Source of the DNA: Candidatus Levyibacteriota bacterium
Lineage (GTDB): Bacteria; Patescibacteriota; Microgenomatia; Levybacterales; UBA12049
DNA: 64,000 nt
NCBI GenBank assembly: GCA_052034235.1
Contig: JBPOIT010000002.1
Span: 69,939-133,938, forward strand
Direction of reading: 5' to 3'
Below, in pieces: positions 6,657-64,000 of this stretch. The notes beneath the pieces were generated by a model that searched no databases, was not told the DNA's origin, and worked only from the letters and a program-made list of their open reading frames with translations. The translations under genes were made by a program, and so were the position numbers. Positions within the stretch are counted from its first letter, which is position 1. The number at the start of each line of letters is the position of its first letter.

Positions 6657-6671
6657 CTCAGGACCTAATCA

Positions 6672-12067: not shown

Positions 12068-12118
12068 AGAAATTTAGAGAAGGCAATGATCTTAAATGAG
12101 GAAATAAAAAGACTTATG

Positions 12119-12187
12119 TTGCGGGGCTAGGAGTTGAACCTAGCCTGTAAGATTATGAGCCTCACGTGCACCGTACACTACCCCGCG
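12119..12187 (-). tRNA. tRNA with CAT anticodon; unpaired C1-A72 and 3' ...CCCCGCAA suggest an initiator tRNA-fMet-like gene; unusually short (about 69 nt)
   Basis: Reverse complement reads CGCGGGGTAGTG...GGCTCATAATC...CTAGGTTCAACTCCTAGCCCCGCAA; CTCATAA anticodon loop; perfect T-arm CTAGG/CCTAG; 5' CGCGGGG and 3' CCCCGCA ends match E. coli tRNA-fMet. The D-arm fold is ambiguous. Confidence 0.5.
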
Positions 12188-12252: not shown

Positions 12253-12326
12253 GCCAGGGTAGCTCAGTTGGTTAGAGCACAGCATTCATAACGCTGAGGT
12301 CGTGGGATCGTGACCCACCCCTGGTA
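12253..12326 (+). tRNA. tRNA with CAT anticodon (elongator Met, or Ile2 if lysidine-modified)
   Basis: GCCAGGG-TA-GCTC-AGTTGGTTA-GAGC-A-CAGCA-TTCATAA-CGCTG-AGGTC-GTGGG-ATCGTGA-CCCAC-CCCTGGT-A; one A-C mismatch in the anticodon stem and a G1-U72 wobble. Confidence 0.6.
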
Positions 12327-12381
12327 CTGAATCTGTAGAGGCAGAATTTGCGAACAAAATACAATTGCCCCGCTTCAAATT

Positions 12382-42718: not shown

Positions 42719-43304
42719 GTGAAGAGAATATCCTGTATTACCCCGTCAGCCGACGGGTTGATTCAGGATAAAAAACGTCTTAGTACTACGTTTCGCATGC
42801 GCGTGATCGTAGTACTTAATAAATTTATTATTAATGCCAACAACGGATGCCTAGGAGATTTTGACCGAGGAAGGACGCAGACGGCGGCGATACTCGTCGG
42901 GGAAGTGCCATCAACTTTTGATCCGGCGGTTTCCGAATGGAGCAATCCCTCCCATACGGGAGAGCCACGCGTGAAGTTAATTCCGCAAGGAGTTATATTA
43001 GCGTTTGGCTGGGAACGGCGTGAACTGAAACATCTTAGTAACGCCAGGAATATAAATCATATGAGATTCCGTCAGTAGCGGTGAGCGAAAGCGGAAAAGG
43101 CTAAACCACTTTAAGTGGGGTTGCAGGGCAGACGATATTCGAGTGTAGCAGGTAGCAGAAAGGTCCGGAATGGCCTTCCAAAGAGAGTGAAAGACTCGTA
43201 TGCGAAACTTTCTACACCGATAGTTTGTTCCTAAGTACCATGGAGCACGATAAACTTTGTGGGAATCTGGGTCGACCACGATCCAAGCCTAAATATCAAA
43301 ATCT

Positions 43305-43343
<39 letters not shown>

Positions 43344-43915
43344 CACCCCGGAAGGGGAATGAAATAGAACTGAAATTGTTGGCTAACAAGCAGCCAGAGT
43401 CCGCAGCAATGCAGGATGATGGTGTGCCTATTGAAGAATGAGCCGGTGAGTTTTTGAATACTGCTCGTTTAACCAATTTTCATTGGGAAGACATAGTGAA
43501 AGCGAGCCCTAACTGGGCTATTTACGTAGTATTCATAAAACCCGAAACTGGGTGAGCTAACCTTGAGCAGGTTGAGTCTCGAGTAATATCGAGAGGAGGA
43601 CCGAACTCGTGTCCGTAGCAATGGGCTGAGATGACTTGAGGTTAGGGGCAATATGCCAAACGAACCCAGAGATAGCTGGTTCTCCCCGAAATATATTAAG
43701 GTATAGCGCTGGTTATAACACAGGGGGTAGAGCACTGAATGGTTTATGGGGGGGCAACCTCTCGTAGCTTATCAAACTCCGAATACCTGTACTTGAATTC
43801 CAGTAGTCAGACTTGTCGGGCTAAGCTGATGAGTCAAAAGGGAAACAGCCCAGACTCCCAACTAAGGCCTCTAAATAGTAGCTAAGTTTTTAAGGAAGTC
43901 ACAACCCAGAGACAC

Positions 43916-43946
<31 letters not shown>

Positions 43947-44814
43947 TAAAGATAGCGTAACAGCTCACTGGCGGATGGTTTGTGGCGCCGAAAATTTATC
44001 GAGGATTAAGCTACTTGCCGAAATTGGAGAATTTATAATTTCTTAATTATAATTTGGTAGGGGAGCGTTCTATTTGCAGTGAAGTTGTGGTGTAAACCAT
44101 GGTGGAGCGGATAGAAGTGAGAATGCCGGCATGAGTAGCGCAATGCAGATGAGATATCTGCACACCGAAAGCCCAAGGTTTCCTCCGCAATGTACATCAA
44201 CGGAGGGTAAGTCGGCTCCTAAGGGTATTCCTCGTTAAAGGGGATTAGCCCGATGGACAACGCGTTAATATTCGCGTACAGGATATAAGTATTGTAAGGG
44301 GGTGACGTAGTAGGAAGTCTCAAGCATGCCGCAAGGTGTGTCCAAGCAGTAAGGTAGTGACGATAGGCAAATCCGTCGTTGTGTTTAATCGAGCTGCAAA
44401 TGAAAGTTCCCTGTTAAAGGGGGATAATTTGAACACTTTCAATTACCGGGAAAAGCCTCATTATACTTCCTTTATGGATAGTAAAACTTATGTTTTGCCG
44501 TACCGCAAACCGACACAGGTGGGCAGGTCGAGTAGACTAAGGTGATCGGGAGACAGAGGATTAAGGAACTCGGCAAAAAAGCTAGGCGTAACCTATGGGA
44601 GATGCCTCGCCGCGCGTAAAAACGCGGTTACAACAAAAGTGTACTTGGCGACTGTTTATCTAAAACACAGGTCCCTGCAAAAGCGAAAGCTAACGTATAG
44701 GGGCTGACACCTGCCCAGTGCTGGTAAGTCAAAAATCTCGGATGAAGGTAGTAATACACAGTCTAGGATTTAAGCTCCAGTAAACGGCAGCAGTAACTAT
44801 AACTGTTCTATGGT

Positions 44815-45067
44815 AACTAACTTCGTTGCCTTAGAAATAACGTGTTTTAGAAAATCCAACTATATGCTGGAATAGCTCAGTATCTGACAGTACCTGAAAA
44901 GGTAAAAATCTGATCAGTGGAGCCAATCAGCAGGGAAGATCCCGATTTAATCGGGAAACCCTCAGAGACTACATGTTGGAGTCCAGCTAGGCTGGGCAAG
45001 ATATAGTCCGACCTTTATGGCGACATAAAGAATTATAGATTACAAGGATCTATAGATTAACATATTG
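44815..45067 (+). other. Putative ORF-less group I intron/intervening sequence in 23S domain IV, near the E. coli 1931 site
   Basis: 23S collinearity breaks after ...GTAACTATAACTGTTCTATGGT(U) and resumes at (G)AGCGAAGTTCCTTGTCGGG; about 253 nt with no rRNA homology; 5' flank ends in U and the insert ends in G, as for group I introns. The exact boundaries are uncertain. Confidence 0.5.
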
Positions 45068-45074
45068 AGCGAAG

Positions 45075-45109
<35 letters not shown>

Positions 45110-45538
45110 TAGAACGACCAAGTAACTGTCTTAATCCTTTACCCGGCGAAATTGAGATGGCTGTGAAGACGCGGCCTAGGTATACATGGACAAAAAGACC
45201 CCGGGAGCTTTACTGTAGCTTGGCATTTGCAAGCTTATTTCAATTATTTAGAATAGGAGGGAGATTCGTCATCAGTGAAATACCTCTTTTTGGAATGAGT
45301 GAGCATAACTTGGACCCGCTTAAAAATACGGGCCAGGGACAGTGTCTGGTGGGCAGTTTTACTGGGGAGGTAGGCTCCTACAACGCAACGGAGCCGCGCA
45401 ATGGTTGGCTAACTCCGGATGGAAATCGGAGTGATAGTGTAAATGCACAAGCCAGCTTGACTGCGAGACCTACAAGTCGAGCAGGTACGAAAGTAGGCGT
45501 TAGTGATCCTGTGATGGATAGTGGTATCCACACAGCTT

Positions 45539-45571
<33 letters not shown>

Positions 45572-45614
45572 GATCGCATCCAAGCGTCCATAGCGACGAT
45601 GCGGTTTGGCACCT

Positions 45615-45932
45615 TAACTACAACATTGGGGCGCCTTAGAGAGTAATCTCTAAAGTCTGGTTATCAACAAACATGCAGATAGAGAATGCATAAAGATAAT
45701 AAAAATACTAGTTCAAATCGGTGAACACCAATAGTGCGAACAGCTGTTGGTCAATACCGAGATTCGACTTTATGTCGGATTGTATCGACTGATTCCTGAT
45801 TATCAAATTAGGATGAGATAGAAACTCTGTTTGGTTAAACAAACAAATTTATAGTTTTTATCATACGACTAGCTCCTCTACAATGATGAAGAGGATGAAG
45901 GTATAGTCAGCGCACATAGTAATATGTGATTG
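45615..45932 (+). other. Putative ORF-less group I intron/intervening sequence in the 23S peptidyl-transferase region, near the E. coli 2500 site
   Basis: TTTGGCACCT | 318 nt | CGATGTCGGCTCATCACATCC. The flanks rejoin to the universal GGCACCUCGAUGUCGGCUC sequence; the insert starts after U and ends in G. Confidence 0.6.
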
Positions 45933-45993
45933 CGATGTCGGCTCATCACATCCTGGAGCTGGAGAAGGTTCCAAGGGTCCGGCTGTTCGCCGG

Positions 45994-46024
<31 letters not shown>

Positions 46025-46169
46025 GCGTGAGCCAGTTCGGTCTCTATCCTGTATACCCGTGTGAGATTTGAGGAGATTCGACCCTAGTACGAGAGGACTG
46101 GGTTGAGGGAATCCCTGGTGTGTCGGTTGTTTCCCGAAAGGAGCACTGCCGAGTAGCTAGATTCCCAAC

Positions 46170-46202
<33 letters not shown>

Positions 46203-46417
46203 GCCTCCGAGATAAGATCTCGATGGATCGCAAGATCCGAAAAACCCCTTGTAGACTACGAGGTTGATAGGAGGGCAGTAGAAGTACAGTAATGTATTAA
46301 GCTTACCCTTACTAATGGTTGACAATAAATTTATTAAGACGTTTTGCCCGCCGAAAGGTTGGTTATCTCTTCACTTGCTAGGGAACTAGCATGTTAGTAC
46401 CTTTAAAGATAAAAATT

Positions 46418-48762: not shown

Positions 48763-50118
48763 ATGGCTAAGAAATCCACAACCAGTTTTGTCTGTCAGGA
48801 CTGCGGCTATGATACACCGTCTTGGATGGGAAAGTGCCCTGAATGTGGCCAGTGGAATACGTTAAAAGAAATCAGGAACGTCGCACTTTCTTCATCAACT
48901 CCGATGCAAGTATCCCTTAATCCTGGAGATGGAAAGCCCAAACAATTAAAAGAAATTGTATATTCGGAGAAGTCGCGAATTCAAACAGAATACACTGAAC
49001 TGAATACAGTTTTGGGAGGAGGAATTGTCATGGGTGCTGCAATGCTGATTGCCGGTGATCCGGGAGTTGGTAAGTCCACTTTGCTTTTGCAGTTGTGCAT
49101 GAGCCTTGCAGGGAGTGGAAAAAAAGTCCTGTATATATCAGGTGAGGAATCTTCAGAGCAAATAAAAATGCGCGCCGATAGGCTCGAGCAACAAAGTGCA
49201 AAAAACAAAAATAGAAAAGCCGCAACTGGTGATAATTTGCTTCTTGTTTCACTTACCAACGCCGACGATATCGTTGCACAAATTGAGGCTATAAAACCAG
49301 AACTTGTGATTATTGATTCTATCCAAACGATAGAGTCTCAAAATGTTGCAGGACTATCAGGTTCTGTCGGGCAAGTTCGCTACGGAGCTTTGCAATTCGT
49401 GAGACTTGCAAAGCAGTTAAATATCCCTATAATGATCGTGGGTCACGTTACCAAGGAAGGAATGGTTGCCGGTCCCATGGTTCTGTCCCACATGGTCGAT
49501 ACCGTACTTTTCCTCGAAGGTGAGAAATTCGCCAAGACCAGAATACTGAGATCACTCAAAAATCGTTTCGGACCTGTTGATGAGGTCGGCATCTTTTTGA
49601 TGCAGGAAGATGGTATGGTCGAAGCGACAAATCCCGAGCAATTATTCTTGGATGGAACACACGGTGATGTCCCTGGCAGTGTCCTTGTAGCGACACTAGA
49701 AGGGTCAAGAGCATTTCTTGTGGAGTTACAAGCGTTAGTTGTCTCAACTAAGCTTCCAATGCCGCGTAGAGTCGTTTCCGGTACTGATCAGAGACGTGTC
49801 GAGTTGCTCCTTGCAGTATTACAAAAACATTGCCGGCTGCCTGTTGATAGTATGGATGTTTTTGTCAATGTTGCGGGAGGTTTAAAACTTTCAGATCCAG
49901 GAATTGATTTAGGCATTTGTCTTGCAATTTATTCAAGCCTGCAAAACGTACCAATGACCAAAACTGTCGGCATTGCCGAAGTTGGTTTGTTGGGCGAACT
50001 GAGAAGTGTCAGTGGCCTTGAAAAACGAGCTCGGGAAGCCGAAAAACTTGGATATAAAAATATCATTACAGCAAAGACGCACAAATCTTTGCGGGATGTC
50101 ATGCAGGGTTTTAAATAA
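48763..50118 (+). CDS. radA: DNA repair protein RadA/Sms
   Basis: N-terminal zinc finger CQDCGYDTPSWMGKCPECGQWNT; Walker A GDPGVGKSTLLLQ; KNRFG motif; Lon-like C-terminal domain. Confidence 0.9.
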   Translation: MAKKSTTSFVCQDCGYDTPSWMGKCPECGQWNTLKEIRNVALSSSTPMQVSLNPGDGKPKQLKEIVYSEKSRIQTEYTELNTVLGGGIVMGAAMLIAGDPGVGKSTLLLQLCMSLAGSGKKVLYISGEESSEQIKMRADRLEQQSAKNKNRKAATGDNLLLVSLTNADDIVAQIEAIKPELVIIDSIQTIESQNVAGLSGSVGQVRYGALQFVRLAKQLNIPIMIVGHVTKEGMVAGPMVLSHMVDTVLFLEGEKFAKTRILRSLKNRFGPVDEVGIFLMQEDGMVEATNPEQLFLDGTHGDVPGSVLVATLEGSRAFLVELQALVVSTKLPMPRRVVSGTDQRRVELLLAVLQKHCRLPVDSMDVFVNVAGGLKLSDPGIDLGICLAIYSSLQNVPMTKTVGIAEVGLLGELRSVSGLEKRAREAEKLGYKNIITAKTHKSLRDVMQGFK

Positions 50119-50131
50119 TTTACAAATAATT

Positions 50132-50980
50132 ATGGCTAAAGCACTTACAATCAAAAATAAACAAGCGGCAGTTGAATCACTGGTAACAGCGCTTGCACTT
50201 GAATCTGCTGATGGTAAAGCAGTTGAAGGTAAAGAAACTGAAGAAAAGCGTACGTCAGGATTCTCTCCCAAAATAATTGGTGCTATTGCTGACGAAGTCT
50301 CCAAAGCACTGCTCAATCGTTTACCGGCAATGCGTACCCGCAAGCGTGCTACAAAACCTAAAAAAGCAAACAAGATAGAGAATGCAATCTTTTTGGATAC
50401 AAGCGCTATTATTGATGGTCGTATCTTTGATGTTATCTATTTGGGACTCCTCACTGGAACGGTTGTGATTATCGATAGTATCTTACTAGAACTCAAACAT
50501 ATAGCAGATTCACAAGATATGGTTAAGCGCGAACGCGGGCGAAAAGGACTTGAGGCACTTGAAAAGCTCCGTAAATCAAAAAAACTCAAAGTGACAATAC
50601 TCAATGCCGAAGATGAAAAACCGTTTCAAAAAGGAAGAGAAGTCGATGAGCATCTCATTAGAATTGCCAAGTTCCACAAAGGGCGTGTTATTACCTGTGA
50701 TTATAATCTTGAGAAGAAAGGCAGTATTGAAAGCGTGGCTGCCATAAACATGAATGCGCTCGCAAACAGTTTGAAAGTGATAGCTGTTCCTGGAGAAGCA
50801 CTGCACGTTAAGGTTTCACATCAGGGAAAAGAAGCGACACAAGGTGTTGGTTATCTGGATGATGGAACTATGATCGTGGTTGAGCAGGGAACTGATGACA
50901 TTGGAAAAGCGATAGATGTGGTTGTTGCCAGAGTCATTCAGACTGCTACTGGGAGAATTTTATTTGCCAAAAAGATTTAG
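50132..50980 (+). CDS. PIN + TRAM domain protein (YacL-like)
   Basis: PIN core IFLDTSAIIDGRI...; C-terminal TRAM-like beta-rich domain; lies after radA as in Firmicutes. Confidence 0.6.
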   Translation: MAKALTIKNKQAAVESLVTALALESADGKAVEGKETEEKRTSGFSPKIIGAIADEVSKALLNRLPAMRTRKRATKPKKANKIENAIFLDTSAIIDGRIFDVIYLGLLTGTVVIIDSILLELKHIADSQDMVKRERGRKGLEALEKLRKSKKLKVTILNAEDEKPFQKGREVDEHLIRIAKFHKGRVITCDYNLEKKGSIESVAAINMNALANSLKVIAVPGEALHVKVSHQGKEATQGVGYLDDGTMIVVEQGTDDIGKAIDVVVARVIQTATGRILFAKKI

Positions 50981-52667: not shown

Positions 52668-53511
52668 TTATGCTGCTCGTTTATGATGATCTTGGAGCGA
52701 TACATAGGCAGTAGTGAATGTTAAGAATGTACTATCCCAATCACGATGGGTCTTTCCCTCGGAATAATCCATATAAAGCTGTACTAATGTAGTGATGTCA
52801 AGATCTCGGTCAGGAAACGCTTGACGGATAATCCTAGCTGCTCGTGTTATCATGCTTGGATGTATAGTACGCTTTTCTTTACGTGCAGTTTCATTATGTG
52901 AACTAAGTGGATAGGCATAGCTATTTGTAAAGCCGCTGTTTGATAGCGTTTCTCCTGAAAAAACCGTATGTGTTGGTCTATGTGCTGCTGCTTCAGAGTG
53001 CAAGTTTGTTACTGTTGGTGCGGGTGGACCAGCGTGTCTTGGATGCGGAGGTGCTATTGTGGGAACTGTCCATCTACCATCTCTCTCAGCAGGATCTTCA
53101 GTGGGACCGAGTTCATAGCGAGGTGAGATGGGGACAGGAACACCAATATCTATAGGGTCAAATGGGGAGGCGGTCTGTCCAACTTGTGGGTACACTTTCA
53201 GGTTTGGGTTGAGGTAGTTCTATAATAGTTGCAGGCTCTATGACAGTTGTTTTGAGAGGCTCGTTTGTTTGTATCAATTCTTCAGGTGTGCTTGTGCCCG
53301 TACCATCATGGGTAGCCAAATACTGCAGGATATGTTCTCCTTGTGCATTTTTGGTAATAGTGCTTGCCGAAACTTTAACATTAAATCTATCTGCAAAATG
53401 AGTCAGATCTGAATTACTTTTAAATCGGCCCAAGTTATCAGCAAAAGCAAATTCTGCAACCTCGCGTTCAGCTACAGTTTGCCATTGTTTCAGCTCTTGC
53501 TGCAATAGCAC
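52668..53511 (-). pseudogene. Pro-rich hypothetical gene split into two overlapping frames (53511-53158 and 53195-52668); possible frameshift
   Basis: Upstream ORF ends ...PQPKPESVPTSWTDRLPI*. The downstream ORF has no ATG; it begins at GTG directly after an in-frame TAG, and the two frames overlap by 38 nt. Confidence 0.35.
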
Positions 53512-53662
53512 GCATTATACACAAAACCCCACAAATCTGCGTGAGAGAAATGTGAGACAAGAGAATGAAGAATAATTCTTTCCTAAATAGAGTCAAAATC
53601 GTTAGTATCGTAACTAGAAACAGGTATGCTAATATAAAAATACTAGTATTTATTAGCTAATT

Positions 53663-56600
53663 ATGAGTGAAGGATCAGAAGGAGTTCCACAGCCTGGGGC
53701 TGCGGATACTGAGGAATTATCAATACCCAGAGAAGTAAAGCCAACCTATTCACCTGAGGTTGTGTCGGTTGATCGGATTGTTCCGGCTGATCGGGTGCAA
53801 GATAGAGATCAGGCTATCATCAGGGCTGTCGGGGAGACAATGGTAGTCCTCAATAAAGATGCAAAGCGAATAGATTTTTTTAACGAACGCGGAGAAAGGA
53901 TAGAACGCCCAGGAACAGAATTAATGATTGCGGATTGGGCACAAATTGTAGATGGGCCTTGGAAACTGGTAAGGACAGAGGGTGAAATTCCTCCAGGGAA
54001 TCCTCAGTATCATACTTTAGATTCTATTCCATCAACGGTCAGACTTGCAGGTGAAGCGTTGCTGGAAGGATTATCAGAAATCGAACTACCTCAAGAATCA
54101 TGGAATATTGACACTACAAATTTGGATCAGGTAGCAATTGATGTAAATGATGATGCAGTGGTGCTATCTATGCCTGGGACAGATAGTTATATTGGGTTTC
54201 TCAGAAAAGATGATGCTGATAATCCACTGTCTGGTGCAAACTGGAGACGTGTTGATTCTCTTTTTGCTGATGCCAGTGCATTACCTGATGTGGTCAATGC
54301 AAGAATCGCTCTAATAGACCAACCTGATATACAAGCTGTAGCGTCGCTAGATAATGCGTATTCTGTTGCATCTACAGAACATGCCATTATTATTTCTGAT
54401 CCTACTGGTGCCGAACGGCACAGAGAATCCCTCTCAAATGTCGGCAACAATATTGCTAAACATCCCCAACAATCAGGGACTTTTTACTTTTGCACAGAAG
54501 ATGCTGACACGATTTCATTTATGGATACCAATACTACTGTTATGCGCACCCAGCAAATTCCGTTGCCTGAGGCATATACAGATGTTCACAATCTGCAACT
54601 AGATCCTTCGGGTCATTTTGTCAGTTTTGCTTCACAGGACAAATTTGTGTTACTTCGTTTGGATAATGGTGAATTGAAACCTATTGATACTGTTGATGGA
54701 GTTTATCACGCAAGTATTGTATATGAAGAGTCGCCTTCAGGAGAGTTGCGGGCACAACTAAAGGGACTCAATCAAAATGGGCATCTTGTTTCCCGAGATG
54801 TAGATTTTGGACCCGTTTTTCGGGAAATACAACGTGAAGAAGCAGAGCGTAGGGCAGCGGCAGTTGACGTAGACAGTATGACTGATGATGAACGAGAAGC
54901 TGAGCGCTTGAGGATTATTGAAGAACGATACGAACCAGTACTTGGAGCTGATAGAGCCACACGCGTACAAGCTCTTCAAGCGCAATTGGAAGGTGTAACT
55001 ACCTTTGAAGAGTTACGAGCTTTGCGTGAACGAAACACTATGTGGCTGAATAATCTGCAATCTCGCGTGAGTGAGGATGAAGTGACATTCTATCGTATCG
55101 GTTTGGAAGGAGCCATTAATGTTAGAGAAGAAGCCATGAGCGTGGGAAGATTCTCTGAAGATTTAGCTGCATTTACCGAGATTATAGGTACACCGTTAGC
55201 ACCAGATTCGTATGTTGATGCTACAAGACTTATTGAAGACTTACGGGATTTACAAGGAAAAGTGCCGGCAGAATTACGTGCACAACTTACCAGCGAGCTG
55301 AGACGTTTTGAACAAGTGGAACGAGATTTTAAAGCCGTTCAAAACGAACGACTCACCCATGATACCACTGAAATACTCACTCAAGCGCAGAATATACTGA
55401 CAACGATCAATACGGCTAGCGCTCTGACAGCTTTTGAAGACGGTTTACCTGATGGAGATGATTTACAGTCCTTGACTGCTAGGCTGAACTATTTGCATAG
55501 CGTAAGTATCCCTGAGTATCGTGCGATGATTGATAACGCTCGTCGAAGGATTATTACTATGATTGTTGAAAGGAGTCGAGCGATTGCTGAACGTGAGGCA
55601 GAACGGGGTATTTCACCAACAGAAGCCCATGATACTTTGGTACAACTCCATAAAGACGAAATTCAAAATATCATTGATTCATTACGCAGAAGAGGATTGC
55701 ATAGCAGAGAGTCTGTAAATGATGCTCTTGGGGTTAACGATACAGAAGAAGATCCTGACGCACAAGGTCTTAAATTAACCTATCGAAGAGTACGGGATGC
55801 AATTGAAGATTTGCAAGATAGCTATCCAGGTGATTATCGTACGCTTAAACGCACATTAGGTGTTTCCGTGGCGCGCTACATTGCAGAAGTTGAACGTGTA
55901 ACTACTAGAGGAGAAGGAGGAGACCAGCGCCCAATGGTAAGAATGGGAGAGCGAAGCGTTCGTGTCTATGAGGAAAAACCCAAAGCAAAACGGCAAAAAG
56001 AACGCAAGGCAACGCTTAATTTTGTTGAAGACAATCCAGAAAGTGGGATAGGACATTTAGAGATTCTTTTGAAGAATGGTAAAACAGATACAGTCTCACG
56101 AAGAGTATTCGCAGATCATCCTCTTCAGGGAAAGTATGAAAGCGGTTTGGTGCGATACAGGCTCAAAAGAACAACAAAAACAACAATGACTGAGGATGAT
56201 TTCCTGGCACTTGAAGATGATTTTTTTGATTGGCAGAAAGGTGAAGAAAAGTCTGAAATACGAAAAACCATCAAAGAAAAGCGTGGGAAAGTTCAAGAAT
56301 ATCACCAAACAAGACCGGTACGTCTTTTTGGAAGTGATGAAAATACACCACCCATACCTTTGAGAGAGGCAAGAGAACAGCTAGCTGCACTTCGGGAAGA
56401 AAATAAAGAACGAGCACGCAACGGTGAGCCTGAAGTGCCGATTCCAACCGATGAAAACCGCAACCCTTTAATGAGGGTCGAGGATGAAGCGTGGGTTCGT
56501 GGATATGAGGAGGTTATGAATGAATATGCTCAATATGCAGCAGATCACCATTATATACTGTTCTCTGAGATTGACAAACAGCTTACTGCTCCAGAAGAAG

Positions 56601-57712
56601 AAAAATCAGAATCTATTGGCTATGTTCCAGAGCTTAGTCCATATTGGACCTTTGATGAACAAACAGAAAAGAGTTTGGAACTGATGGCTGAATTTGCAGA
56701 CATACAGGAACGTTTGCAAGTAGGGATGATCAATATGCGAGGTCATGCCGGTACTGGAAAAGATGTACTTGTAGAGATGTTTTGCAATATGACAAAACGG
56801 CAATATTTTGCTTTTAACTGTTCAAAGTGGACTGACGAAACAGATCTCTCAGAAGCAATTTCACTCAAAGATGGCAGTGTTATCACTATTCCATCAACAG
56901 TATACCAAGCAATTCAAACTTCAGGTGCAGTATTGTACTTTAATGAGTTCAATGCATTGCCTGAGCCGACACAGCTATATCTTAATTCACTGCTTGATCA
57001 AAAACGTGAATTGGTTCTCCCTTCAAAAGGTTCCATCAAAGCAGAACCGGATGTCCTGATGTTTAGCTCAATGAATGAAGGAGAAGGGTATGCTGGAGTC
57101 AATCCGATTGCCAAGCCAGTCCGTGACCGTTTGCAGTGGATTGATGTAGAGTACCCGCCATTACACCGTGAGCCTCGATCTGAAGATACTCGAGCAGTAC
57201 CATTTAGCGCATCAGAAGCACTGCGTATTGCCAGAGGTGTCACATCGCTTGAAGAATTCACTTATGATTTTGACATGCAATACAATGACTTTGTTAAAAT
57301 GTGGGATCATTTCATAAACGGTGTGGACAATGGTGTTGCTGATGACTCACTAACGGCAGAACAGCGATTTGATCTTGAAACAGTATTTAATCTCGTACAG
57401 TATAGTGAAAAACTGCGTATAGCATTTGTCAACAGTACCAAGCCAAAACGTGCGCAAGTAAAAATTATGCCAACAGATCCACAACCACTTATGACTATGG
57501 AACCAATTACTGGAAGAGGGTTGTTGTTTGCTGCCGCTGATCTCAGTAATATACCTGTTGAGGAGAAAACAACCCCTGGAAGGCGTAGCGCTCACTCTAC
57601 AGCAGTAGAACTTTTACAGAGAAGATTCTTACCAAAGATAGCAGATGTTACTGAGCGGCAGAGTGTAGATACGGCACTACGTGCTTGGCCAGTAGAAGCT
57701 GCTGCAGCATAA
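53663..57712 (+). CDS. Giant (1349 aa) protein: about 950 aa of uncharacterised N-terminal and coiled-coil region fused to a C-terminal MoxR-type AAA+ ATPase
   Basis: C-terminal region GHAGTGKDVLVEMF (Walker A), VLYFNEFNALPEPTQLYLNSLLDQKREL (Walker B and sensor region) and MFSSMNEGEGYAGVNPIAKPVRDRLQWIDVEYPP match MoxR/AAA_3-AAA_5 motifs (DEiNRa...tQsaLL; ATqNP.e.eG...DRF....v.YP). Confidence 0.7.
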   Translation: MSEGSEGVPQPGAADTEELSIPREVKPTYSPEVVSVDRIVPADRVQDRDQAIIRAVGETMVVLNKDAKRIDFFNERGERIERPGTELMIADWAQIVDGPWKLVRTEGEIPPGNPQYHTLDSIPSTVRLAGEALLEGLSEIELPQESWNIDTTNLDQVAIDVNDDAVVLSMPGTDSYIGFLRKDDADNPLSGANWRRVDSLFADASALPDVVNARIALIDQPDIQAVASLDNAYSVASTEHAIIISDPTGAERHRESLSNVGNNIAKHPQQSGTFYFCTEDADTISFMDTNTTVMRTQQIPLPEAYTDVHNLQLDPSGHFVSFASQDKFVLLRLDNGELKPIDTVDGVYHASIVYEESPSGELRAQLKGLNQNGHLVSRDVDFGPVFREIQREEAERRAAAVDVDSMTDDEREAERLRIIEERYEPVLGADRATRVQALQAQLEGVTTFEELRALRERNTMWLNNLQSRVSEDEVTFYRIGLEGAINVREEAMSVGRFSEDLAAFTEIIGTPLAPDSYVDATRLIEDLRDLQGKVPAELRAQLTSELRRFEQVERDFKAVQNERLTHDTTEILTQAQNILTTINTASALTAFEDGLPDGDDLQSLTARLNYLHSVSIPEYRAMIDNARRRIITMIVERSRAIAEREAERGISPTEAHDTLVQLHKDEIQNIIDSLRRRGLHSRESVNDALGVNDTEEDPDAQGLKLTYRRVRDAIEDLQDSYPGDYRTLKRTLGVSVARYIAEVERVTTRGEGGDQRPMVRMGERSVRVYEEKPKAKRQKERKATLNFVEDNPESGIGHLEILLKNGKTDTVSRRVFADHPLQGKYESGLVRYRLKRTTKTTMTEDDFLALEDDFFDWQKGEEKSEIRKTIKEKRGKVQEYHQTRPVRLFGSDENTPPIPLREAREQLAALREENKERARNGEPEVPIPTDENRNPLMRVEDEAWVRGYEEVMNEYAQYAADHHYILFSEIDKQLTAPEEEKSESIGYVPELSPYWTFDEQTEKSLELMAEFADIQERLQVGMINMRGHAGTGKDVLVEMFCNMTKRQYFAFNCSKWTDETDLSEAISLKDGSVITIPSTVYQAIQTSGAVLYFNEFNALPEPTQLYLNSLLDQKRELVLPSKGSIKAEPDVLMFSSMNEGEGYAGVNPIAKPVRDRLQWIDVEYPPLHREPRSEDTRAVPFSASEALRIARGVTSLEEFTYDFDMQYNDFVKMWDHFINGVDNGVADDSLTAEQRFDLETVFNLVQYSEKLRIAFVNSTKPKRAQVKIMPTDPQPLMTMEPITGRGLLFAAADLSNIPVEEKTTPGRRSAHSTAVELLQRRFLPKIADVTERQSVDTALRAWPVEAAAA

Positions 57713-57713
57713 T

Positions 57714-60700
57714 ATGTCCCAAGAATCTAATGAATTTCATGACCAGTCTCTCATAGGTGAACAGCCGACATTACCAGAACGTCCAGTGCATCATAATCGA
57801 GCAGTTGATCGGGCAAGAGAATTACTTAGAAGGATCTTCAAGAAAACTGGAACAAGAAATCGTGCAGAAGAGCCACATCATCGTGAGCCCCCTCAAGCTC
57901 TAGAGGAAACCTTATCTGATGAGCCAGAACCCAAAATGCCTCCTTCTGAACATTTTAACCGTCAGAATGCGAGAGAGATGGAAAGGCTTGCTGAACAAGG
58001 AACTCCCGAATTGCGTGTTCTTCCCGGCGACCAATGGGCGATGCATTATCCCAACGGTATAGATGCCAGAAATGAAGCAGTTGAGCGGCTATTTGCAGGA
58101 GAAGCCGATCCGCATGTCGAAGTTGATACTGTCACCCCTGATACGCTTTTTTATGATCAGAATGAATTGACTAATAAAGGGTTTTCTACTGTACGTAATA
58201 GGGTATTTGATGTTGTGACATCTCATGAACATTATGATTATGCAAAGTTCACCAATTTTATCTCTGAAATGCACGGGACAACCATAGATGCAGCATTGGC
58301 GCAAAAATTGTATAACACAATTGCGTATGATCGTATCAGACATGTCATGCTTGATACGTATCATGCAACTGATCGAGCAAGAATTGTTGAGACTATCCGT
58401 ACTGAAATGCAGGCTACTCCAGCTCAAATAAGGTCACTTGCTGGAATGGAACAGATTCTTGCTGCCTTGAAGACAAACACATATGCAGATGATTTTGAGT
58501 TTGTTACCCCTGCAATACAGCGCAGAGTAGAAGATAGCTTAGCTCCAGAAGATGCGAGTCTTACAAGTGGATTGCAGGAAAGTTATAACCAATATATGCA
58601 ACAGGGGACACCTGATGCCTATGATACCCTTGTGCGAAGCATTAAAGAGTATTATCAACCTGAGCAAGAGCACTCGCATGAACCTCAGCAAAACGAAGAT
58701 CAACAAATGCCTCCTTTTAACGAAGAATATCAACCTCCTACAGAAAGTGATAGGGATTCGATGCGATATTTTGAAGTAATACCAACCGGTGATGCAACAG
58801 AACCTGTATTTGGCAAATACAAAACAGTCAAACAGGGTTATTTTGATAGAGCAAGTATGTCCTGGAAAAGTAAAAATGTGAGACGTCCATACACGTCAGT
58901 AGTTGAAGGAGCGCAGCGATACACAATTGCCAATATTCCAGCAATTCAGGATGCAGAACTTTATGATATTCCCGTACCAGATGGTTTTGCGCTTGACTAT
59001 AACTCGTTCCAGACAACGGGTTCTGATGCCAAGCTTTTGCAAGATACTGATGGGTGTTTTTTTATTCAGGGTAGCGATGTCGGAAAGTTTACCGTAGATT
59101 TTCTTCCATCGGACAAAACATTTACTAATCCTCCTCAAACAGTTGACAGTATACCTCTTCATAGTGGATCACTCTCAGAAGAAGCAGAAGACTTTGTCAG
59201 GGAAGTAAAGAATGCAGATCCGGAAAACGAAGTGATTGCGCAGAAAGTAGATGAGTTTATTAAATCCAGACATCTCTATCCGAGTGAGGATGAACTCATG
59301 ACATTACAGAGTGAACTGCTAAGTATTTCAACTGGCGATACGTATATACAAAACCTTGAACGATCAGATCTTCTTGATTGTTACCTAGGGAATACTTTGG
59401 CGATTGCTATGCTCAGGCATGCTGGGGTTCCTGCCAGAATCGTCAAAGGACATGAAGTTTCAGATACAAACGAAAACATGGCAGTCATTGACGGCAGTAC
59501 CGGACATGCTTGGAGTGAGTTTTGGGATGGAAATCAATGGATCCAATACGACTTTACACCTGATAAACCATCCGATGCAGCACAAGAAGAACAAGAACAA
59601 CAATCTGGAAATGAAAGTGGAGTGGGGCAAGAAGAAAAAGAACCTGGTGAGGGAACGGAAGCTAAAGATTCACCTGAAGGCATTCGTCCACCAGCATTAC
59701 CGAGAGTTGATAATGATAGTAATCTGATCCCACAATCAGGTGCTGGTGAAGAAGAAGAACAGCTAGCTGAGCGGGATCTAGAAGCGGCGGGAGAGGCCAT
59801 AGAAGAGGCGAGAACGCGCCAAAGAGAATTGCAGGGGCAAATAGGTGATCTAGATTCTTTTGAAGGCATTCAAGGCATGCAAGAAGAAGTATCGGGTGAC
59901 GAACAGCTTTTTAATGATATGAAAGACCAATTTGCAGATGCGCTCAGTGCTCGTGCGCTACAAATGAAAGAAAACATGCTTGAAGAATTGGAGAATATGG
60001 TTGAGGATGGGTTTATGAGTGAAGAACAGGAAGCAGCCATGCGTGAGCAAATAGGACAAGCAGAGTATACAGAGCTTGATCAAGTGCGTGAACAAATTGC
60101 CACTGAGAATAGTGCTTACAATGAATTCCAGCGTATTCGAGAAGAAATAGAACCGCTCGTTGATGAGTGGTTTGAGTATTTTGTTTCAAAGTTACCGAGA
60201 GAAGATGTTGTAACCTATGATGATACTGCTGTAGGCAAGCGCGGGAGAATTAATGAAAATGCACTTTCGAGCCCCGGGAAATTTATAACCGGAAAAGTGT
60301 TAAGTCCACGGGTTATGAGGCCGGAAATCAGAGCGAAGTTTCTCGCATCCGTTGTCGTTGATGTAAGTCAATCAATGGTGCTTAACGACACTCTTACTGC
60401 CTATGATCCTACTAAATTGAATAACGCGAAAAAGCTCGTTGTCTTTTATAACGAACTGTTCTCACGTATTAGTGAACAGTACGGGTATATTAAGTATGCA
60501 AATTACGCTTTTGCCCAAGACGTAATCGTCATTAAGCGTTTCGAACAGCAATATAACTCTGCAAAACGATATACCTATGAAGGCGATGAATCCTCAACAG
60601 TAAAGGCACGATTAATGGAAAGTTTACAAGCAAAAGATTCCAGTTATACGCTCGAAGCGGTACAAACTGCTGCTGATGATTTAAATGCTATCAAACAACA

Positions 60701-60989
60701 ATATAGCGATTATGCTTCAGCATTATATTTCGTGGGAGATGGTGGCGATAGTCTGAATAGAGAGGCACAAATACGGGATTTTTTAAGCAGAAGTGAGGCC
60801 GAAGATGGTTTCGGAGACCATCAATTGCATGCTACAATGCTTGGAGATGAAAACCAGCGAGCGATTCTTGCCGATATCTTTGGAGACCGAAATACTGCGG
60901 TCGCTCCGGATTTTGATTCATTGATTGAACGAAGTATGGAGCAGTTTGAAGATGATATGGAAGATTTCCTGCGGGGGAAAGTAAGCTAA
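57714..60989 (+). CDS. Giant (1091 aa) protein with transglutaminase-like cysteine-protease core, acidic coiled-coil linker and C-terminal vWA (MIDAS) domain
   Basis: TGase core CYLGNTLAIAMLRHAGVPARIVKGHE...GHAWSEFWDGNQWIQYDFTPD (Cys-His-Asp); vWA MIDAS VVVDVSQSM with a downstream Thr and GDGGDS; start is 1 nt after the stop of the AAA+ gene. Confidence 0.7.
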   Translation: MSQESNEFHDQSLIGEQPTLPERPVHHNRAVDRARELLRRIFKKTGTRNRAEEPHHREPPQALEETLSDEPEPKMPPSEHFNRQNAREMERLAEQGTPELRVLPGDQWAMHYPNGIDARNEAVERLFAGEADPHVEVDTVTPDTLFYDQNELTNKGFSTVRNRVFDVVTSHEHYDYAKFTNFISEMHGTTIDAALAQKLYNTIAYDRIRHVMLDTYHATDRARIVETIRTEMQATPAQIRSLAGMEQILAALKTNTYADDFEFVTPAIQRRVEDSLAPEDASLTSGLQESYNQYMQQGTPDAYDTLVRSIKEYYQPEQEHSHEPQQNEDQQMPPFNEEYQPPTESDRDSMRYFEVIPTGDATEPVFGKYKTVKQGYFDRASMSWKSKNVRRPYTSVVEGAQRYTIANIPAIQDAELYDIPVPDGFALDYNSFQTTGSDAKLLQDTDGCFFIQGSDVGKFTVDFLPSDKTFTNPPQTVDSIPLHSGSLSEEAEDFVREVKNADPENEVIAQKVDEFIKSRHLYPSEDELMTLQSELLSISTGDTYIQNLERSDLLDCYLGNTLAIAMLRHAGVPARIVKGHEVSDTNENMAVIDGSTGHAWSEFWDGNQWIQYDFTPDKPSDAAQEEQEQQSGNESGVGQEEKEPGEGTEAKDSPEGIRPPALPRVDNDSNLIPQSGAGEEEEQLAERDLEAAGEAIEEARTRQRELQGQIGDLDSFEGIQGMQEEVSGDEQLFNDMKDQFADALSARALQMKENMLEELENMVEDGFMSEEQEAAMREQIGQAEYTELDQVREQIATENSAYNEFQRIREEIEPLVDEWFEYFVSKLPREDVVTYDDTAVGKRGRINENALSSPGKFITGKVLSPRVMRPEIRAKFLASVVVDVSQSMVLNDTLTAYDPTKLNNAKKLVVFYNELFSRISEQYGYIKYANYAFAQDVIVIKRFEQQYNSAKRYTYEGDESSTVKARLMESLQAKDSSYTLEAVQTAADDLNAIKQQYSDYASALYFVGDGGDSLNREAQIRDFLSRSEAEDGFGDHQLHATMLGDENQRAILADIFGDRNTAVAPDFDSLIERSMEQFEDDMEDFLRGKVS

Positions 60990-61357
60990 TTTTTAGCTTT
61001 GGGTTTTTTCTTCGAGGCGCGGATTTCGTTGATAATTTGCTCCATTGCACGTCTGGCAATTGCGAGATCAACATTTTCTGTTTGTGAAGAAAGGTCTTTC
61101 TTTTCCTGCTGATCGGTTTTTTTCAGAACATGGTTATAAAAATCTGTACCGAGAGGTGCTTCTCCAGCTTCAACTGCTGCAAGTTCTTTTTCAAGGTTCA
61201 TTTGTACCTTTTCATCGTGTAAAAGGAAATATGTTTTCCAAGCAATGACTTCAACAGTCAGTTTCTGTTCAGGTTCCATGTAATCATACATGTTTAAAAC
61301 CTGCATCTTAAGCTTCTCATCCAGCGGCAACAGTTTAATTGCATCTTTCGTCGTCAT
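60986..61357 (-). CDS. Hypothetical 123-aa protein
   Basis: ORF convergent with the giant vWA gene, overlapping it by 4 nt; Lys-rich C-terminus. Confidence 0.4.
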   Translation of the reverse strand: MTTKDAIKLLPLDEKLKMQVLNMYDYMEPEQKLTVEVIAWKTYFLLHDEKVQMNLEKELAAVEAGEAPLGTDFYNHVLKKTDQQEKKDLSSQTENVDLAIARRAMEQIINEIRASKKKPKAKN

Positions 61358-61382
61358 AGTACTGAGTATATCATTTTATAGT

Positions 61383-64000
61383 TTAAGGAATTTTCTTTTC
61401 GAGATGTTCAAATAAGACTACACTTGAGAAAAAATTGGCAAGATGTTTTTGGTCTACTTCACGTATTTTTTCTAGTGCACCCTTAAGAGAGCTTCCAGGT
61501 ACTGTTATTTTAAAGTGTGTAATGATGAGATCAGCAAGGCTCTTTTTATCGAGTACCTTTTTATTCCTGGCAAAGGCTGCTTCAGGACCTGTCTCACCAT
61601 TATAGTTGACGTCGTAATCCTGTTTGTGATTAAAGATTAAATCCATAATATTTCTATATGCTTTGTCTTCATCTATCGTACCACTAGCTGTGCCAGAAGT
61701 TGGTGGGGTATATTCAAAGAACGTATTTCTGTCGGCTTGCTCAGGCATTTGTTCCATGAATTTCTCGACGATCTTGCCAAATCTGCCATAAGCTCGATCT
61801 ATTGCTTCAATCTCGGGTGTACTGATACCTTTTTCAACCAACTTAGTTAGCTTTTCTGTAGTTTCTGTTTCTCTTTTATCAAGGTTGATAAGTAGTTGAT
61901 TTATACCTCTTTGTCGTGCTCCTAGACGTTTTGCAACTGCATCTTTTACGGTTCTCAGTGTGGTAATATCTACTGCACCAAGGCTAGGATTTAAGCCTCG
62001 TTTTTCGGTGATGGCTGCACCTATTTCCTCAGCGCTTAGACTATATAAGTCAAGCTCAGAAAAGCCGTAGGTCATAACATCTGTTAGGGAAGTGAGGTCT
62101 GCATTTGGTGTACGTACCTCAGCTTCCGCGTTTTGTGCACGAGCTTCAGCCATCGCATGAATCAACATTATTCTGTTATCAGCTAAAGTATTGGCGTCCT
62201 TCGGCCATCCTTTAGTACGATCAGCGGTATTTGCATCGTTCATAGCTTTTTCAAGGTCGCTATAACTGCTTGTTACCAATGTGCCTGATGTAACGCCTGG
62301 GATACTCCATGCAAGGACATTATCAAAAGAATATCGCATGGCCATAATTGCAAGGTCGGTATTTTGTCTGCCTACTGTATCGCTACTGAGTAGTGATTCT
62401 CGAGCATTGGTGAGGTTGTCTGTGCCTCCACTAAGCGCATCAAGTGTTTGCTCAATGACCGCACGTCTTCGCTCAATAGCCTCAGCCCTGTTTTTAAATT
62501 CCGCAGATTCGCGGATTGTCTGTTCATTTTGTCTAGCCTGCTCAATCATGCTTGATAATCTCGCATTTGCAGTATCAAGCGCACGTTGGCGGACTGCCAA
62601 TTCCTGCCTGTCAGTAGTTGGTGTTGCCAAACTTCCTTCTGCGCGGCCTACTGCTTCCCGTAGTGGTTGCACGTATGTTGTCTCGAAATCTTTGGCGCGG
62701 TCACGAATGTCTTCTTCTAAAGTTTTCTGTTCGTTAGCAATCGAGTTTATACTCGTGCCTTTAATTGTGATTTCTGTGCCACCTTCAGCGAGTGCTTTTT
62801 GTAGCGCAGCTTGTTTCTCAGCGGGTGTTGCTGTAGGTTTGCCATCGATACTAATTGATCGTAAGGATTTTTCCTGTTCGCGTGCTATTCTTTGAATCTC
62901 TTTGCGTTGTTCAGCTACTGATTTTTGGAAACTAGTCAGTGCTTCGTTTTCTGAAGTGAGGGTAGCAGTATCGGTTGTCAACGCAGCTTTCTCTTTGGTC
63001 AATCGTTTTTGTTCAGCATCGACCATCTTACCTGAACGATGGCCTTCTTTCGCTGCTTTGAGTCTGTCTTTAAAAAGTATTAAATGATCTGTTTTGCCGT
63101 CAACGATACTTTGAAATATTTCTTTAACATCTTTTTTGATTACTTCTTCTTCAGCTTTAAGCATACGTTCAGCATTACCTGCAATGTCCAAATTGTTCCA
63201 ATCAAACTCAGGATTTTCTCCCCATGTTTGATTGCCTTGTGCGTCGAGAATTGGTCGGAGACTGATATCTGCATGTGTTGCTGTTCTAGAGCGGGGAATC
63301 ATTACAGGTACTCCATGTGTGTCAAATACTCCATGACCATGGACATCTTGAAGACGTATCATGTCGGGTACAGACACAAAGTTGCCTGCGCTATCTGTGG
63401 TAGTCACCATCTCAGGAATTTGTTGTCCTATCCCATCGCGAGCTGAAACAGTTCTCATAACTGGTAACATAATCGGATTACCGGAACTATCAAACATAGG
63501 CGCACCTGCCGCATCTACTGCCTGCTGCATGCGAGGAACAAATACTTGTTCTAGAAGTGTTTCTCTTGTCCGTTGGTCTACTTGAGCGGTACCACTAGCA
63601 TCGAGAATAGGCACAAACACTGGGATGAGTTCAGGTACTTGGATGCCTTGTATCGCTTGCACCTCAACAGTATTGTTATTTCTGTCTCTTAGCCCTTCAC
63701 GATTAGGGTTAAATTTCTCCATAACTGCTTGTTCAGCATCTGTGCCCTGAGTTGGACGGCTACGAGTACCCTCAAGTATCCAATCTATATTCATGGGTCT
63801 TCGCAGTTCTGCTGGAATGCCATCTTCTTTTTGAAACGCCATGATATCCTTTGCACTTCCGTTTAAATCATCAACTAATTTCTTTGCAAGGGTAACGCCT
63901 GTTTCGCTAATGCGATTCTTTCTCACAATTTCGCCACGTGCATTAATCGAAAAGTCTTCAGGATCCATATTATGGAATGTTTTCATCCATTTGATTTTTG
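61383..64000 (-). CDS. Giant (more than 867 aa) coiled-coil hypothetical protein; the N-terminus may lie beyond the window edge
   Basis: ORF is open to the window end with no stop upstream of M 63986; long Q/E/A/R-rich predicted coiled coil in the middle. Confidence 0.5.
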   Translation of the reverse strand, partial: KIKWMKTFHNMDPEDFSINARGEIVRKNRISETGVTLAKKLVDDLNGSAKDIMAFQKEDGIPAELRRPMNIDWILEGTRSRPTQGTDAEQAVMEKFNPNREGLRDRNNNTVEVQAIQGIQVPELIPVFVPILDASGTAQVDQRTRETLLEQVFVPRMQQAVDAAGAPMFDSSGNPIMLPVMRTVSARDGIGQQIPEMVTTTDSAGNFVSVPDMIRLQDVHGHGVFDTHGVPVMIPRSRTATHADISLRPILDAQGNQTWGENPEFDWNNLDIAGNAERMLKAEEEVIKKDVKEIFQSIVDGKTDHLILFKDRLKAAKEGHRSGKMVDAEQKRLTKEKAALTTDTATLTSENEALTSFQKSVAEQRKEIQRIAREQEKSLRSISIDGKPTATPAEKQAALQKALAEGGTEITIKGTSINSIANEQKTLEEDIRDRAKDFETTYVQPLREAVGRAEGSLATPTTDRQELAVRQRALDTANARLSSMIEQARQNEQTIRESAEFKNRAEAIERRRAVIEQTLDALSGGTDNLTNARESLLSSDTVGRQNTDLAIMAMRYSFDNVLAWSIPGVTSGTLVTSSYSDLEKAMNDANTADRTKGWPKDANTLADNRIMLIHAMAEARAQNAEAEVRTPNADLTSLTDVMTYGFSELDLYSLSAEEIGAAITEKRGLNPSLGAVDITTLRTVKDAVAKRLGARQRGINQLLINLDKRETETTEKLTKLVEKGISTPEIEAIDRAYGRFGKIVEKFMEQMPEQADRNTFFEYTPPTSGTASGTIDEDKAYRNIMDLIFNHKQDYDVNYNGETGPEAAFARNKKVLDKKSLADLIITHFKITVPGSSLKGALEKIREVDQKHLANFFSSVVLFEHLEKKIP

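Follow-up and report, generated by a model that had tools for sequence, protein, structure and literature searches.

A giant gene pair encoding a predicted AAA+/vWA machine with a built-in transglutaminase-like core

The DNA considered here, referred to as the window, is a 64,000-nucleotide segment of a bacterial chromosome (contig JBPOIT010000002.1, ~41% G+C), and this report concerns two giant genes in it, ORF1 and ORF2 (ORF, open reading frame), which together combine an AAA+ ATPase, a transglutaminase-like core, and a domain of the von Willebrand factor A type (vWA). The genes lie exactly where the original prediction, made from the letters of the window, had placed them; they encode 1349 and 1091 amino acids (aa) and are separated by 1 nt, a single T between the TAA stop of the first and the ATG start of the second. 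Both are confirmed as real genes. The three-domain make-up proposed for them also holds, since the AAA+ and transglutaminase (TGase) parts are recognized by the Pfam families AAA_5 and Transglut_core, and the vWA part by the residues of its metal ion-dependent adhesion site (MIDAS) together with its predicted fold. The two genes and the region that precedes them are as follows.

53512-53662, plus strand: AT-rich intergenic region before ORF1, the presumed promoter region of a two-gene operon
53663-57712, plus strand: ORF1, 1349 aa, an acidic and apparently soluble giant AAA+ protein
57714-60989, plus strand: ORF2, 1091 aa, a very acidic and apparently soluble TGase-vWA giant

The promoter of the operon is presumed to lie at 53512-53662 from the position of this region and a reading of its letters; a sigma-70 pattern scan of 53000-61500 returned sites no more numerous than in shuffled controls, and a terminator scan likewise did no better than its controls. 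ORF1 holds 237 Asp and Glu residues against 159 Lys and Arg, and ORF2 holds 206 against 105. No transmembrane (TM) segment or signal peptide was found in either protein by a hydropathy scan, the peak 19-residue Kyte-Doolittle value of ORF2 being 1.24, and no TM-like segment occurs in ORF2 or in its orthologue at a related locus, L001. Two soluble proteins acting as a cytoplasmic pair are the best-supported interpretation of these sequences. NCBIfam and PADLOC searches gave no match for ORF1 or ORF2, and no described function for the pair was found, as had been anticipated.

Domains of the ATPase and of its partner

The ATPase of ORF1 occupies the C-terminal part of the protein and is preceded by about a thousand residues of other sequence, divided as follows.

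53798-54817, plus strand: probable beta-propeller domain, ORF1 residues ~46-385, from weak profile matches
54818-56662, plus strand: charged middle region, ORF1 residues ~386-1000, with no Pfam match in 34 members
56738-57133, plus strand: AAA_5 ATPase core, ORF1 residues 1026-1157 as delimited by Pfam; the full AAA+ module, lid included, reaches to about residue 1349
56741-56764, plus strand: Walker A motif GHAGTGKD (G1027-D1034), with Asp in place of the canonical Ser/Thr, aligned to midasin and NorQ
56942-56947, plus strand: Walker B residues N1094-E1095, with Asn in place of the canonical Asp and the catalytic Glu retained

The match of ORF1 to Pfam AAA_5 is strong (E 1.7e-15, 57.6 bits against a gathering cut-off of 22) and recurs in all 34 of the ORF1 homologues searched, and a profile of the AAA+ module run against the PDB finds midasin (1.7e-17), NorQ (9e-15), CbbQ (3e-12), and CobS (1e-3). 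The family AAA_3, on the other hand, gives no match in ORF1 at E<=1 and is absent among the families found at E<=0.01 in the 34 homologues. By its sequence, then, the ATPase is MoxR-class and belongs to the CbbQ/NorQ/midasin AAA_5 group, not to MoxR proper (AAA_3; YeaC/RavA-like), so that the MoxR-type label originally given to it stands at the level of the class and fails at that of the AAA_3 family.

The nucleotide-binding motifs of this module are where the family departs from its relatives. The GTGKD of ORF1 aligns with the GxGKT/S of midasin and NorQ at Walker A, and FNEFN aligns with LDELN at Walker B; the canonical pattern of GK[ST] followed by hhhhDE is therefore replaced by GKD plus NE, and this is so in all 38 distinct full-length ORF1 homologues, in which G1030, G1032, K1033, D1034, N1094, and E1095 are invariant. 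Equally invariant (38/38) are the sensor-1 residue N1138, R1156, and the helix-2-insert residues K1055, W1056, and E1059, N1138 and R1156 being aligned to the residues N and R that serve NorQ and midasin as sensor-1 and as the arginine finger before strand 5. All this is seen among homologues whose identity is just 20-36% overall. The GKD/NE pair is not present in a sister clade (type B, described below), whose ATPases keep canonical GKT and DE, and no description of it was found in the searchable literature.

We read the GKD/NE pair as a Mg ligand that has moved from Walker B to Walker A and not as decay, because the coupled exchange of Thr for Asp and of Asp for Asn would leave one carboxylate near the Mg site. 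The other reading is that the AAA+ module is dead or very slow, in which case ORF1 would bind nucleotide as a scaffold or switch only, and the pair would be a static complex with a TGase in it that no motor drives. What speaks for it is that both changes fall on positions which normally organize Mg-ATP, in 38 of 38 homologues. We nevertheless consider it unlikely: the two changes are strictly coupled in a way that would keep a carboxylate near the metal, and the other catalytic residues (K1033, E1095, N1138, and R1156), as well as the helix-2-insert residues K1055, W1056, and E1059, have all stayed invariant despite the low overall identity, a pattern not expected for a dead site.

The part of ORF1 ahead of the ATPase had been set down as about 950 aa of uncharacterized sequence, and that of ORF2 as about 500 aa, and the remote-homology check of the two came out differently. 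Apart from weak propeller signals at residues ~46-385, the N-terminal ~1000 residues of ORF1 are without a Pfam family in 34 members. A profile of the ORF1 N-terminus built from 26 homologues finds solely beta-propellers in the PDB, led by the NHL repeats of Thin (E 3e-4) and followed by weaker matches to Brat NHL (0.02) and Tex1 WD40 (0.2); cytochrome cd1 is also among the weak propeller matches of residues ~46-385, and Pfam adds weak signals from Beta-prop_THOC3 in ORF1 and from CPSF_A in one homologue. Residues ~46-385 are therefore a probable, if weakly matched, beta-propeller. The middle region, which from its composition may be helical or coiled-coil, contains a conserved block at ~741-860 with near-invariant G755, Q757, G762, F766, W769, and E770.

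For ORF2, the domains were delimited with the help of an AlphaFold2 model computed from a 50-sequence alignment (mean predicted local distance difference test score, pLDDT, 87; predicted template modelling score 0.57; 801 residues at 90 or above), an earlier prediction from a two-sequence alignment having been unusable (pLDDT 35.6). The segments are listed here.

57921-58658, plus strand: N-domain, ORF2 residues ~70-315, alpha/beta and helical, modelled with pLDDT >90
58764-59573, plus strand: beta-sandwich and TGase-like core, ORF2 residues ~351-620, with Cys556, His598, and Asp613
59574-60191, plus strand: acidic linker, ORF2 residues ~621-826, acidic and disordered at first and then made of long acidic helices
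60198-60986, plus strand: vWA domain, ORF2 residues ~829-1091, with the MIDAS residues D883-x-S885-x-S887, S977, and D1009 intact

The N-domain carries conserved residues of its own (P104, W108, H111, Y112, G129, and P142), and no relative was found for residues 70-315: a profile search of the PDB returns nothing, and the domain does not figure among the top fold matches of the model. In the model a low-complexity break separates it from the beta-sandwich (residues 351-470), which is followed by the TGase core (480-620). Transglut_core matches at 555-613 (E 7.9e-11, 42.6 bits against a cut-off of 23) and does so in all 23 members searched, and across 57 distinct homologues the triad is kept almost without exception, with C556 in 56 and H598 and D613 in 57. 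When the model was submitted to Foldseek, the top match was the periplasmic domain of Pseudomonas aeruginosa TgpA (E 3.7e-10 over 299 columns), an essential protein whose transglutaminase activity has been measured (PMC3507681). The centre of ORF2 may cleave, deamidate, or cross-link its substrate.

Between the TGase core and the vWA domain, the linker begins with a stretch at 631-668 of pLDDT <50 and continues in helices at 679-711, 734-764, and 785-826; residues 679-826 consist of Asp and Glu to 29% and have a net charge of -31.

The vWA domain itself is recognized by its residues more than by its score. Pfam VWA_2 matches ORF2 at 880-1010 below threshold (E 0.028, 15.5 bits against a cut-off of 27), and at the level of the family, among 23 members, VWA_2 is found in 10 (best E 9e-6) and VWA in 6. 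The intact DxSxS MIDAS that had been claimed for it is borne out by the homologues, where D883, S885, and S887 are each present in 55 of 55 and D1009 in 54 of 54; the MIDAS Thr position, 977, is Thr in 47, Ser in 4 (the window among them), and Asn in 3. No match to DUF58 was found in ORF2, in 23 ORF2-type homologues, or in 34 ORF1-type homologues. In the Foldseek ranking, TgpA is followed by NorD's vWA domain in NorQD complexes and by the MIDAS domains of Rea1/MDN1, ahead of generic vWA domains; BFVD fold matches to the domain are to generic phage vWA or CobT-like proteins only. The domain is a true MIDAS domain and not a DUF58, and in the model its nearest structures are the MDN1/Rea1 MIDAS and NorD. 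A conserved insertion around Y947...T962-x-K964 can be put forward from sequence as a candidate pore finger only.

The original prediction had also pointed to the three-gene YeaC/YeaD/YebA-type set, of which the pair might be a fused form. The two share a MoxR-class AAA+, a vWA-like part, and a transglutaminase-like (TGL) part, and the TGase of ORF2 is structurally nearest to TgpA. In place of that set, however, the window has two genes, an AAA_5 and not an AAA_3 ATPase, giant extra domains, a true MIDAS vWA fused to the TGase where a DUF58 would be expected, and no TM segment, whereas YebA-like TGL proteins have about eight (PMC3495828). The pair is consequently not simply a fused version of the set.

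An obligatory pair among housekeeping genes

The pair initially gave the impression of being rare. Single-sequence, word-seeded searches returned one relative of ORF2 and none of ORF1, and two-sequence pattern scans returned one fragment or nothing. This rarity was an artefact of sensitivity and was overturned by two later searches. An exhaustive HMMER search of 1.84 billion representatives gave 1076 matches at E<=1e-3, 56 of them at E<=1e-30, with ~25 full-length architectures among the matches, and a rescan of JGI metagenomes with a 23-sequence alignment gave 359 relatives, from which 80 loci were retained. The suggestion that a giant fused pair of this kind is an oddity has thus to be given up. 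Some contig names, Hainich among them, suggest that the sources were groundwater. The label Candidatus Peregrinibacteria is attached to one relative, and the contigs that carry others measure 0.91 Mb and 1.37 Mb, which is consistent with small genomes. No relevant literature was found on Peregrinibacteria in combination with transglutaminase.

Synteny was followed by calling ORFs in all loci and searching them with iterated hidden Markov models of each window protein. The 55 distinct loci that extend 400 nt or more upstream of their ORF2-type gene all have an ORF1-type gene (1256-1680 aa) directly ahead of it on the same strand; the spacer between the two has a median length of 10 nt (range -22 to 31, and one outlier at 297). 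The adjacency of ORF1 and ORF2 is therefore obligatory, which upholds both the tight operonic coupling read from the window and the expectation that an AAA+ of this class works with a vWA partner, the vWA-bearing gene being directly downstream in 55 of 55; what this count establishes is adjacency, and a physical interaction of the two proteins is a prediction. All-against-all clustering of the ORFs at 75 loci of this type (type A) found no third conserved neighbour, the other "families" being spurious overlaps or restricted to subclades.

When 150 genes flanking the pair at 48 type-A loci were searched with Pfam, the functions that came up were ordinary housekeeping ones, namely penicillin-binding protein (PBP) transpeptidase, FtsZ, FtsA, Mur ligases, MurG, ribosomal protein S2, TsaD, primase Toprim, RuvX, signal peptidase II, and serine dehydratase. 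The 25 commonest families include none that belongs to defence or to mobile elements. A unit inherited in fixed form among housekeeping genes, in small-genome bacteria resembling the candidate phyla radiation (CPR) and Peregrinibacteria, points to a role in housekeeping, be it protein processing or complex assembly, and not in defence. The pair has the look of a lineage-conserved unit; it did not prove to be a ubiquitous core gene of known function.

These data bear directly on one of the functions first suggested, that of an NTP-dependent conflict system, anti-phage or abortive, akin to the MoxR-vWA ternary systems and having a TGL peptidase as effector. The common ground is real: the ternary systems have an AAA+ and vWA core and peptidase effectors, and TGL peptidases turn up occasionally in those that contain VMAP (PMC7159879). 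Further encouragement comes from the type-B sister clade, which resembles type A in having a TGase(Cys-His-Asp)-vWA(DxSxS) fusion beside an AAA_5 gene. Type-B proteins are giants of 1000-1300 aa that match only residues ~325-670 of the ORF2 profile and carry the Cys-His-Asp triad and the DxSxS MIDAS (loci L010, L011, and L012). They differ from type A in the reversed gene order, the AAA_5 gene being downstream of the TGase-vWA giant, in the shorter ATPase (762-869 aa) with its GKT and DE, and, for some, in mobile or defence-like contexts. On an IMG/VR contig (L012, 7688-19342), a type-B pair lies near a Peptidase_C39_2, a reverse transcriptase, an EcoRI-type methylase, and a GmrSD-HNH gene, and at L011 (5205-19960) another is accompanied by genes for a terminase, for a ParB-methylase, and for MAP3K_TRAF_bd/TPR-S. 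A conflict-related role may apply to this clade and is plausible for some of its members.

For type A, however, we regard such a role as quite unlikely. PADLOC has no match, and the pair lacks a third component of the VMAP, iSTAND, or FtsH kind, none being conserved at the 75 loci; the architecture is uniform and without variable effector domains, a scan of viral contigs found no type-A member, and the neighbours are those of the housekeeping census. The hosts are also of another kind, small-genome bacteria and not the multicellular lineages in which the ternary systems concentrate (PMC7159879), and the beta-propeller that those systems fuse to the vWA protein is here, probably, on the ATPase.

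Another of the functions first suggested was surface assembly, and what bears on it is a trio of genes downstream of the pair, in the order 123-aa (minus), 1191-aa (minus), and 569-aa (plus), the first two of which fall within the window.

60986-61357, minus strand: conserved small protein of 123 aa, syntenic in a subclade only, its membership in the system uncertain
61383-64000, minus strand: downstream coiled-coil giant, the C-terminal ~870 of 1191 aa, cut by the window end

The 123-aa gene, which is on the strand opposite to ORF2, overlaps the stop codon of ORF2 over 4 nt, and its product is helical and 54% identical to the L001 orthologue; it is found beside the pair in L001, L004, L013, L051, and the window's own contig (L002), and nowhere else. 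The 1191-aa protein, full length on L002, is 38% identical to its L001 orthologue, has a Gly-rich hydrophobic segment at 257-275, and has no Pfam match; its middle is coiled-coil-like, with weak matches of the JetC/LmuB/SMC kind. Beyond it, the 569-aa protein is acidic and ends in a C-terminal TM anchor. None of the three has a family match (window 60986-64000; L002 9964-15654). Despite different flanks, the trio is conserved at 27-54% identity in the same five loci, and it is undetectable beside the pair in ~60 others; genes of similar size next to the pair in L005 and L008, considered as divergent homologues of the trio, were tested and are not homologous. The co-occurrence of the pair with the coiled-coil giant that the original prediction envisaged is accordingly true of the window's subclade, where the gene accompanies the pair at no more than 5 distinct loci in addition to the contig of the window, and it does not extend to the rest of the family. 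At one of these loci (L001, 3267-5960), directly upstream of the ORF1-type gene, there is an 897-aa paralogue that has a Ser/Thr kinase domain (Pkinase, E 1.6e-30) instead of the N-terminal region, followed by an ORF1-like middle and an AAA_5 in which a G..GxGK pattern found no Walker A.

In this subclade the pair may work together with the membrane-associated proteins encoded beside it, and one could go further and see in the pair and the trio a cell-envelope or surface-assembly machine of the kind proposed for TgpA/YebA. TgpA is the closest TGase structure; a block of five genes is conserved, with one product anchored by a C-terminal TM segment and another bearing a Gly-rich hydrophobic stretch; and PBP, Mur, and Fts genes are close by at a few loci. 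Set against this are the lack of TM segments and signal peptides in both ORF1 and ORF2 and the confinement of the trio to the subclade, and we hold the proposal to be very unlikely.

A candidate two-component machine

The reading that we prefer, at a rough probability of 55%, is that the pair constitutes a cytoplasmic AAA+/vWA two-component machine like NorQD, CbbQO, and midasin, in which a TgpA-like thiol enzyme has been built into the vWA partner. In NorQD, the vWA domain is seated on the ATPase ring with a finger in the pore that touches the helix-2 inserts, and the linker of NorD is stretched (PMC13036017). ORF2 has the same order of parts as NorD, that is, an N-domain, a linker, and a C-terminal vWA, and ORF1 has an AAA_5 module that is closest to midasin, NorQ, and CbbQ and whose helix-2-insert residues are invariant in the family.

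By analogy with these systems, six copies of ORF1 would come together by their C-terminal AAA_5 modules in a ring that hydrolyses ATP, and the C-terminal vWA of ORF2 would dock on that ring as the vWA of NorD does, by a finger in the pore and a C-terminal contact. A protein substrate might be held by the MIDAS metal site, by the N-domain of ORF2 together with the propeller-like N-domain of ORF1, or by both. ATP-driven movement of the ring would then be passed through the acidic helical linker of ORF2 and remodel the substrate, and this remodelling would expose the substrate to the Cys556-His598-Asp613 centre, or gate that centre, after which the substrate would be cleaved, deamidated, or cross-linked. 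The mode of docking, the direction in which force is transmitted, and the nature of the substrate are all inferred from analogy in this scheme.

The differences from the reference systems are considerable. Compared with NorQ (~270 aa), ORF1 has ~1000 extra N-terminal residues and GKD/NE at Walker A and B; compared with NorD and CbbO, ORF2 has an inserted beta-sandwich and TGase, an unrelated N-domain, and a vWA without similarity at the sequence level; and no client enzyme gene is linked to the pair as in NorQ-NorD and CbbQ-CbbO. Midasin (Rea1/MDN1) is a single eukaryotic chain with six tandem AAA domains that acts on pre-60S ribosomes, whereas the pair is bacterial, is encoded by two genes, and has one AAA domain per chain as well as a TGase domain.

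Since the closest solved relatives of the ATPase and of the vWA are NorQ/NorD, CbbQ, and CobS, and the BFVD matches to the vWA include CobT-like proteins, the pair could also be taken as a chaperone for metal-cofactor insertion or enzyme activation in the strict sense of NorQD, CbbQO, and CobST, serving one client enzyme and using the TGase-like domain as a mere binding module. The invariance of the Cys-His-Asp triad (56-57 of 57) argues for catalysis and not for mere binding, and at none of the 75 loci is the pair accompanied by a client gene (NOR, Rubisco, CobN, or the like), so that we regard this version as very unlikely.

Several points weigh against the two-component machine as well. GKD/NE depart from the canonical Mg-coordinating residues, which means that ATP hydrolysis is not assured; the sequence profile of the vWA finds no relative in the PDB, its affinity to NorD and midasin being seen in predicted structure only; no conserved neighbour at the 75 type-A loci hints at a substrate; the status of a core gene is deduced from context only; and the assignment of the family to a lineage rests on one labelled fragment of a metagenome-assembled genome.

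A more far-reaching version can be entertained tentatively, although we rather doubt it. In it, CPR/Peregrinibacteria-type bacteria would have in their type-A pairs a soluble mechanoenzyme like midasin, essential and present throughout the lineage, in which the Mg ligand has moved (GKD/NE) and a ring of AAA_5 modules, one per chain, drives a MIDAS-tethered transglutaminase or thiol protease on a major cytoplasmic complex, for example while ribosomes or other large complexes mature. If true, it would amount to a previously unrecognized class of ATP-dependent protein-modifying machine.

Other features of the window and meaning of the family

Elsewhere in the window, a 23S rRNA gene at 42820-46335 is interrupted by a group I intron (44805-45030), and the intron is followed by an ORF of 153 aa without a Pfam match (45079-45540), possibly a degenerate homing endonuclease. 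The rRNA operon has the order tRNA-Ala, 23S, 5S, with no 16S anywhere in the 64 kb; an intron-bearing 23S without an adjacent 16S is typical of CPR/Patescibacteria. At 6584-6657 there is a tRNA-Ile with the anticodon UAU, AUA being decoded in most bacteria by a modified CAU tRNA, and two divergent tRNA-Met(CAU) genes, at 12118-12187 (minus) and 12253-12327 (plus), lie 65 nt apart; one of these may be the initiator or, should lysidine modification occur, the precursor of tRNA-Ile2. Positions 219-271 match the aptamer of an AdoCbl-II (cobalamin) riboswitch slightly over the gathering cut-off (39.9 bits against 36.5), in an apparently reduced genome. A RadA/Sms-like gene at 48763-50118 (zinc ribbon, AAA_25/KaiC, ChlI) overlaps a PIN-TRAM ORF at 50006-50980 by ~110 nt, and the GTG start of the latter is probably called too far upstream.

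Returning to the pair, its component families and the logic of joining AAA+ to vWA, with or without a TGL, are already known, and the proposal is conceptually close to predicted systems, in particular to the MoxR-vWA-TGL sets that Zhang and Aravind predicted to be ATP-dependent degradation systems (PMC3495828). As far as we found, there is no description of a giant and soluble architecture in two genes, of a fusion of TGase to vWA, of the GKD/NE pair, of the propeller-like and other novel domains, or of the lineage-wide conservation in small-genome bacteria. At ~7.3 kb, the pair is a large investment for such bacteria, and most of its length (residues 1-1000 of ORF1 and 70-315 of ORF2) is taken up by conserved domains to which no fold or function is assigned.

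MoxR-class AAA+/vWA pairs are widespread, and few of them (NorQD, CbbQO, the chelatases, and midasin) are understood mechanistically; we know of no experiment that explains the common MoxR-vWA-TGase association. The family described here is a compact, soluble, two-protein version of it, abundant in uncultured small-genome bacteria and with all the TGase and MIDAS catalytic residues intact. The strictly coupled exchange of Thr for Asp in Walker A and of Asp for Asn in Walker B amounts to a natural experiment in how P-loop ATPases coordinate Mg-ATP, and the pair could serve as a tractable model for the coupling of an AAA+ ring to a thiol enzyme by a MIDAS adaptor.

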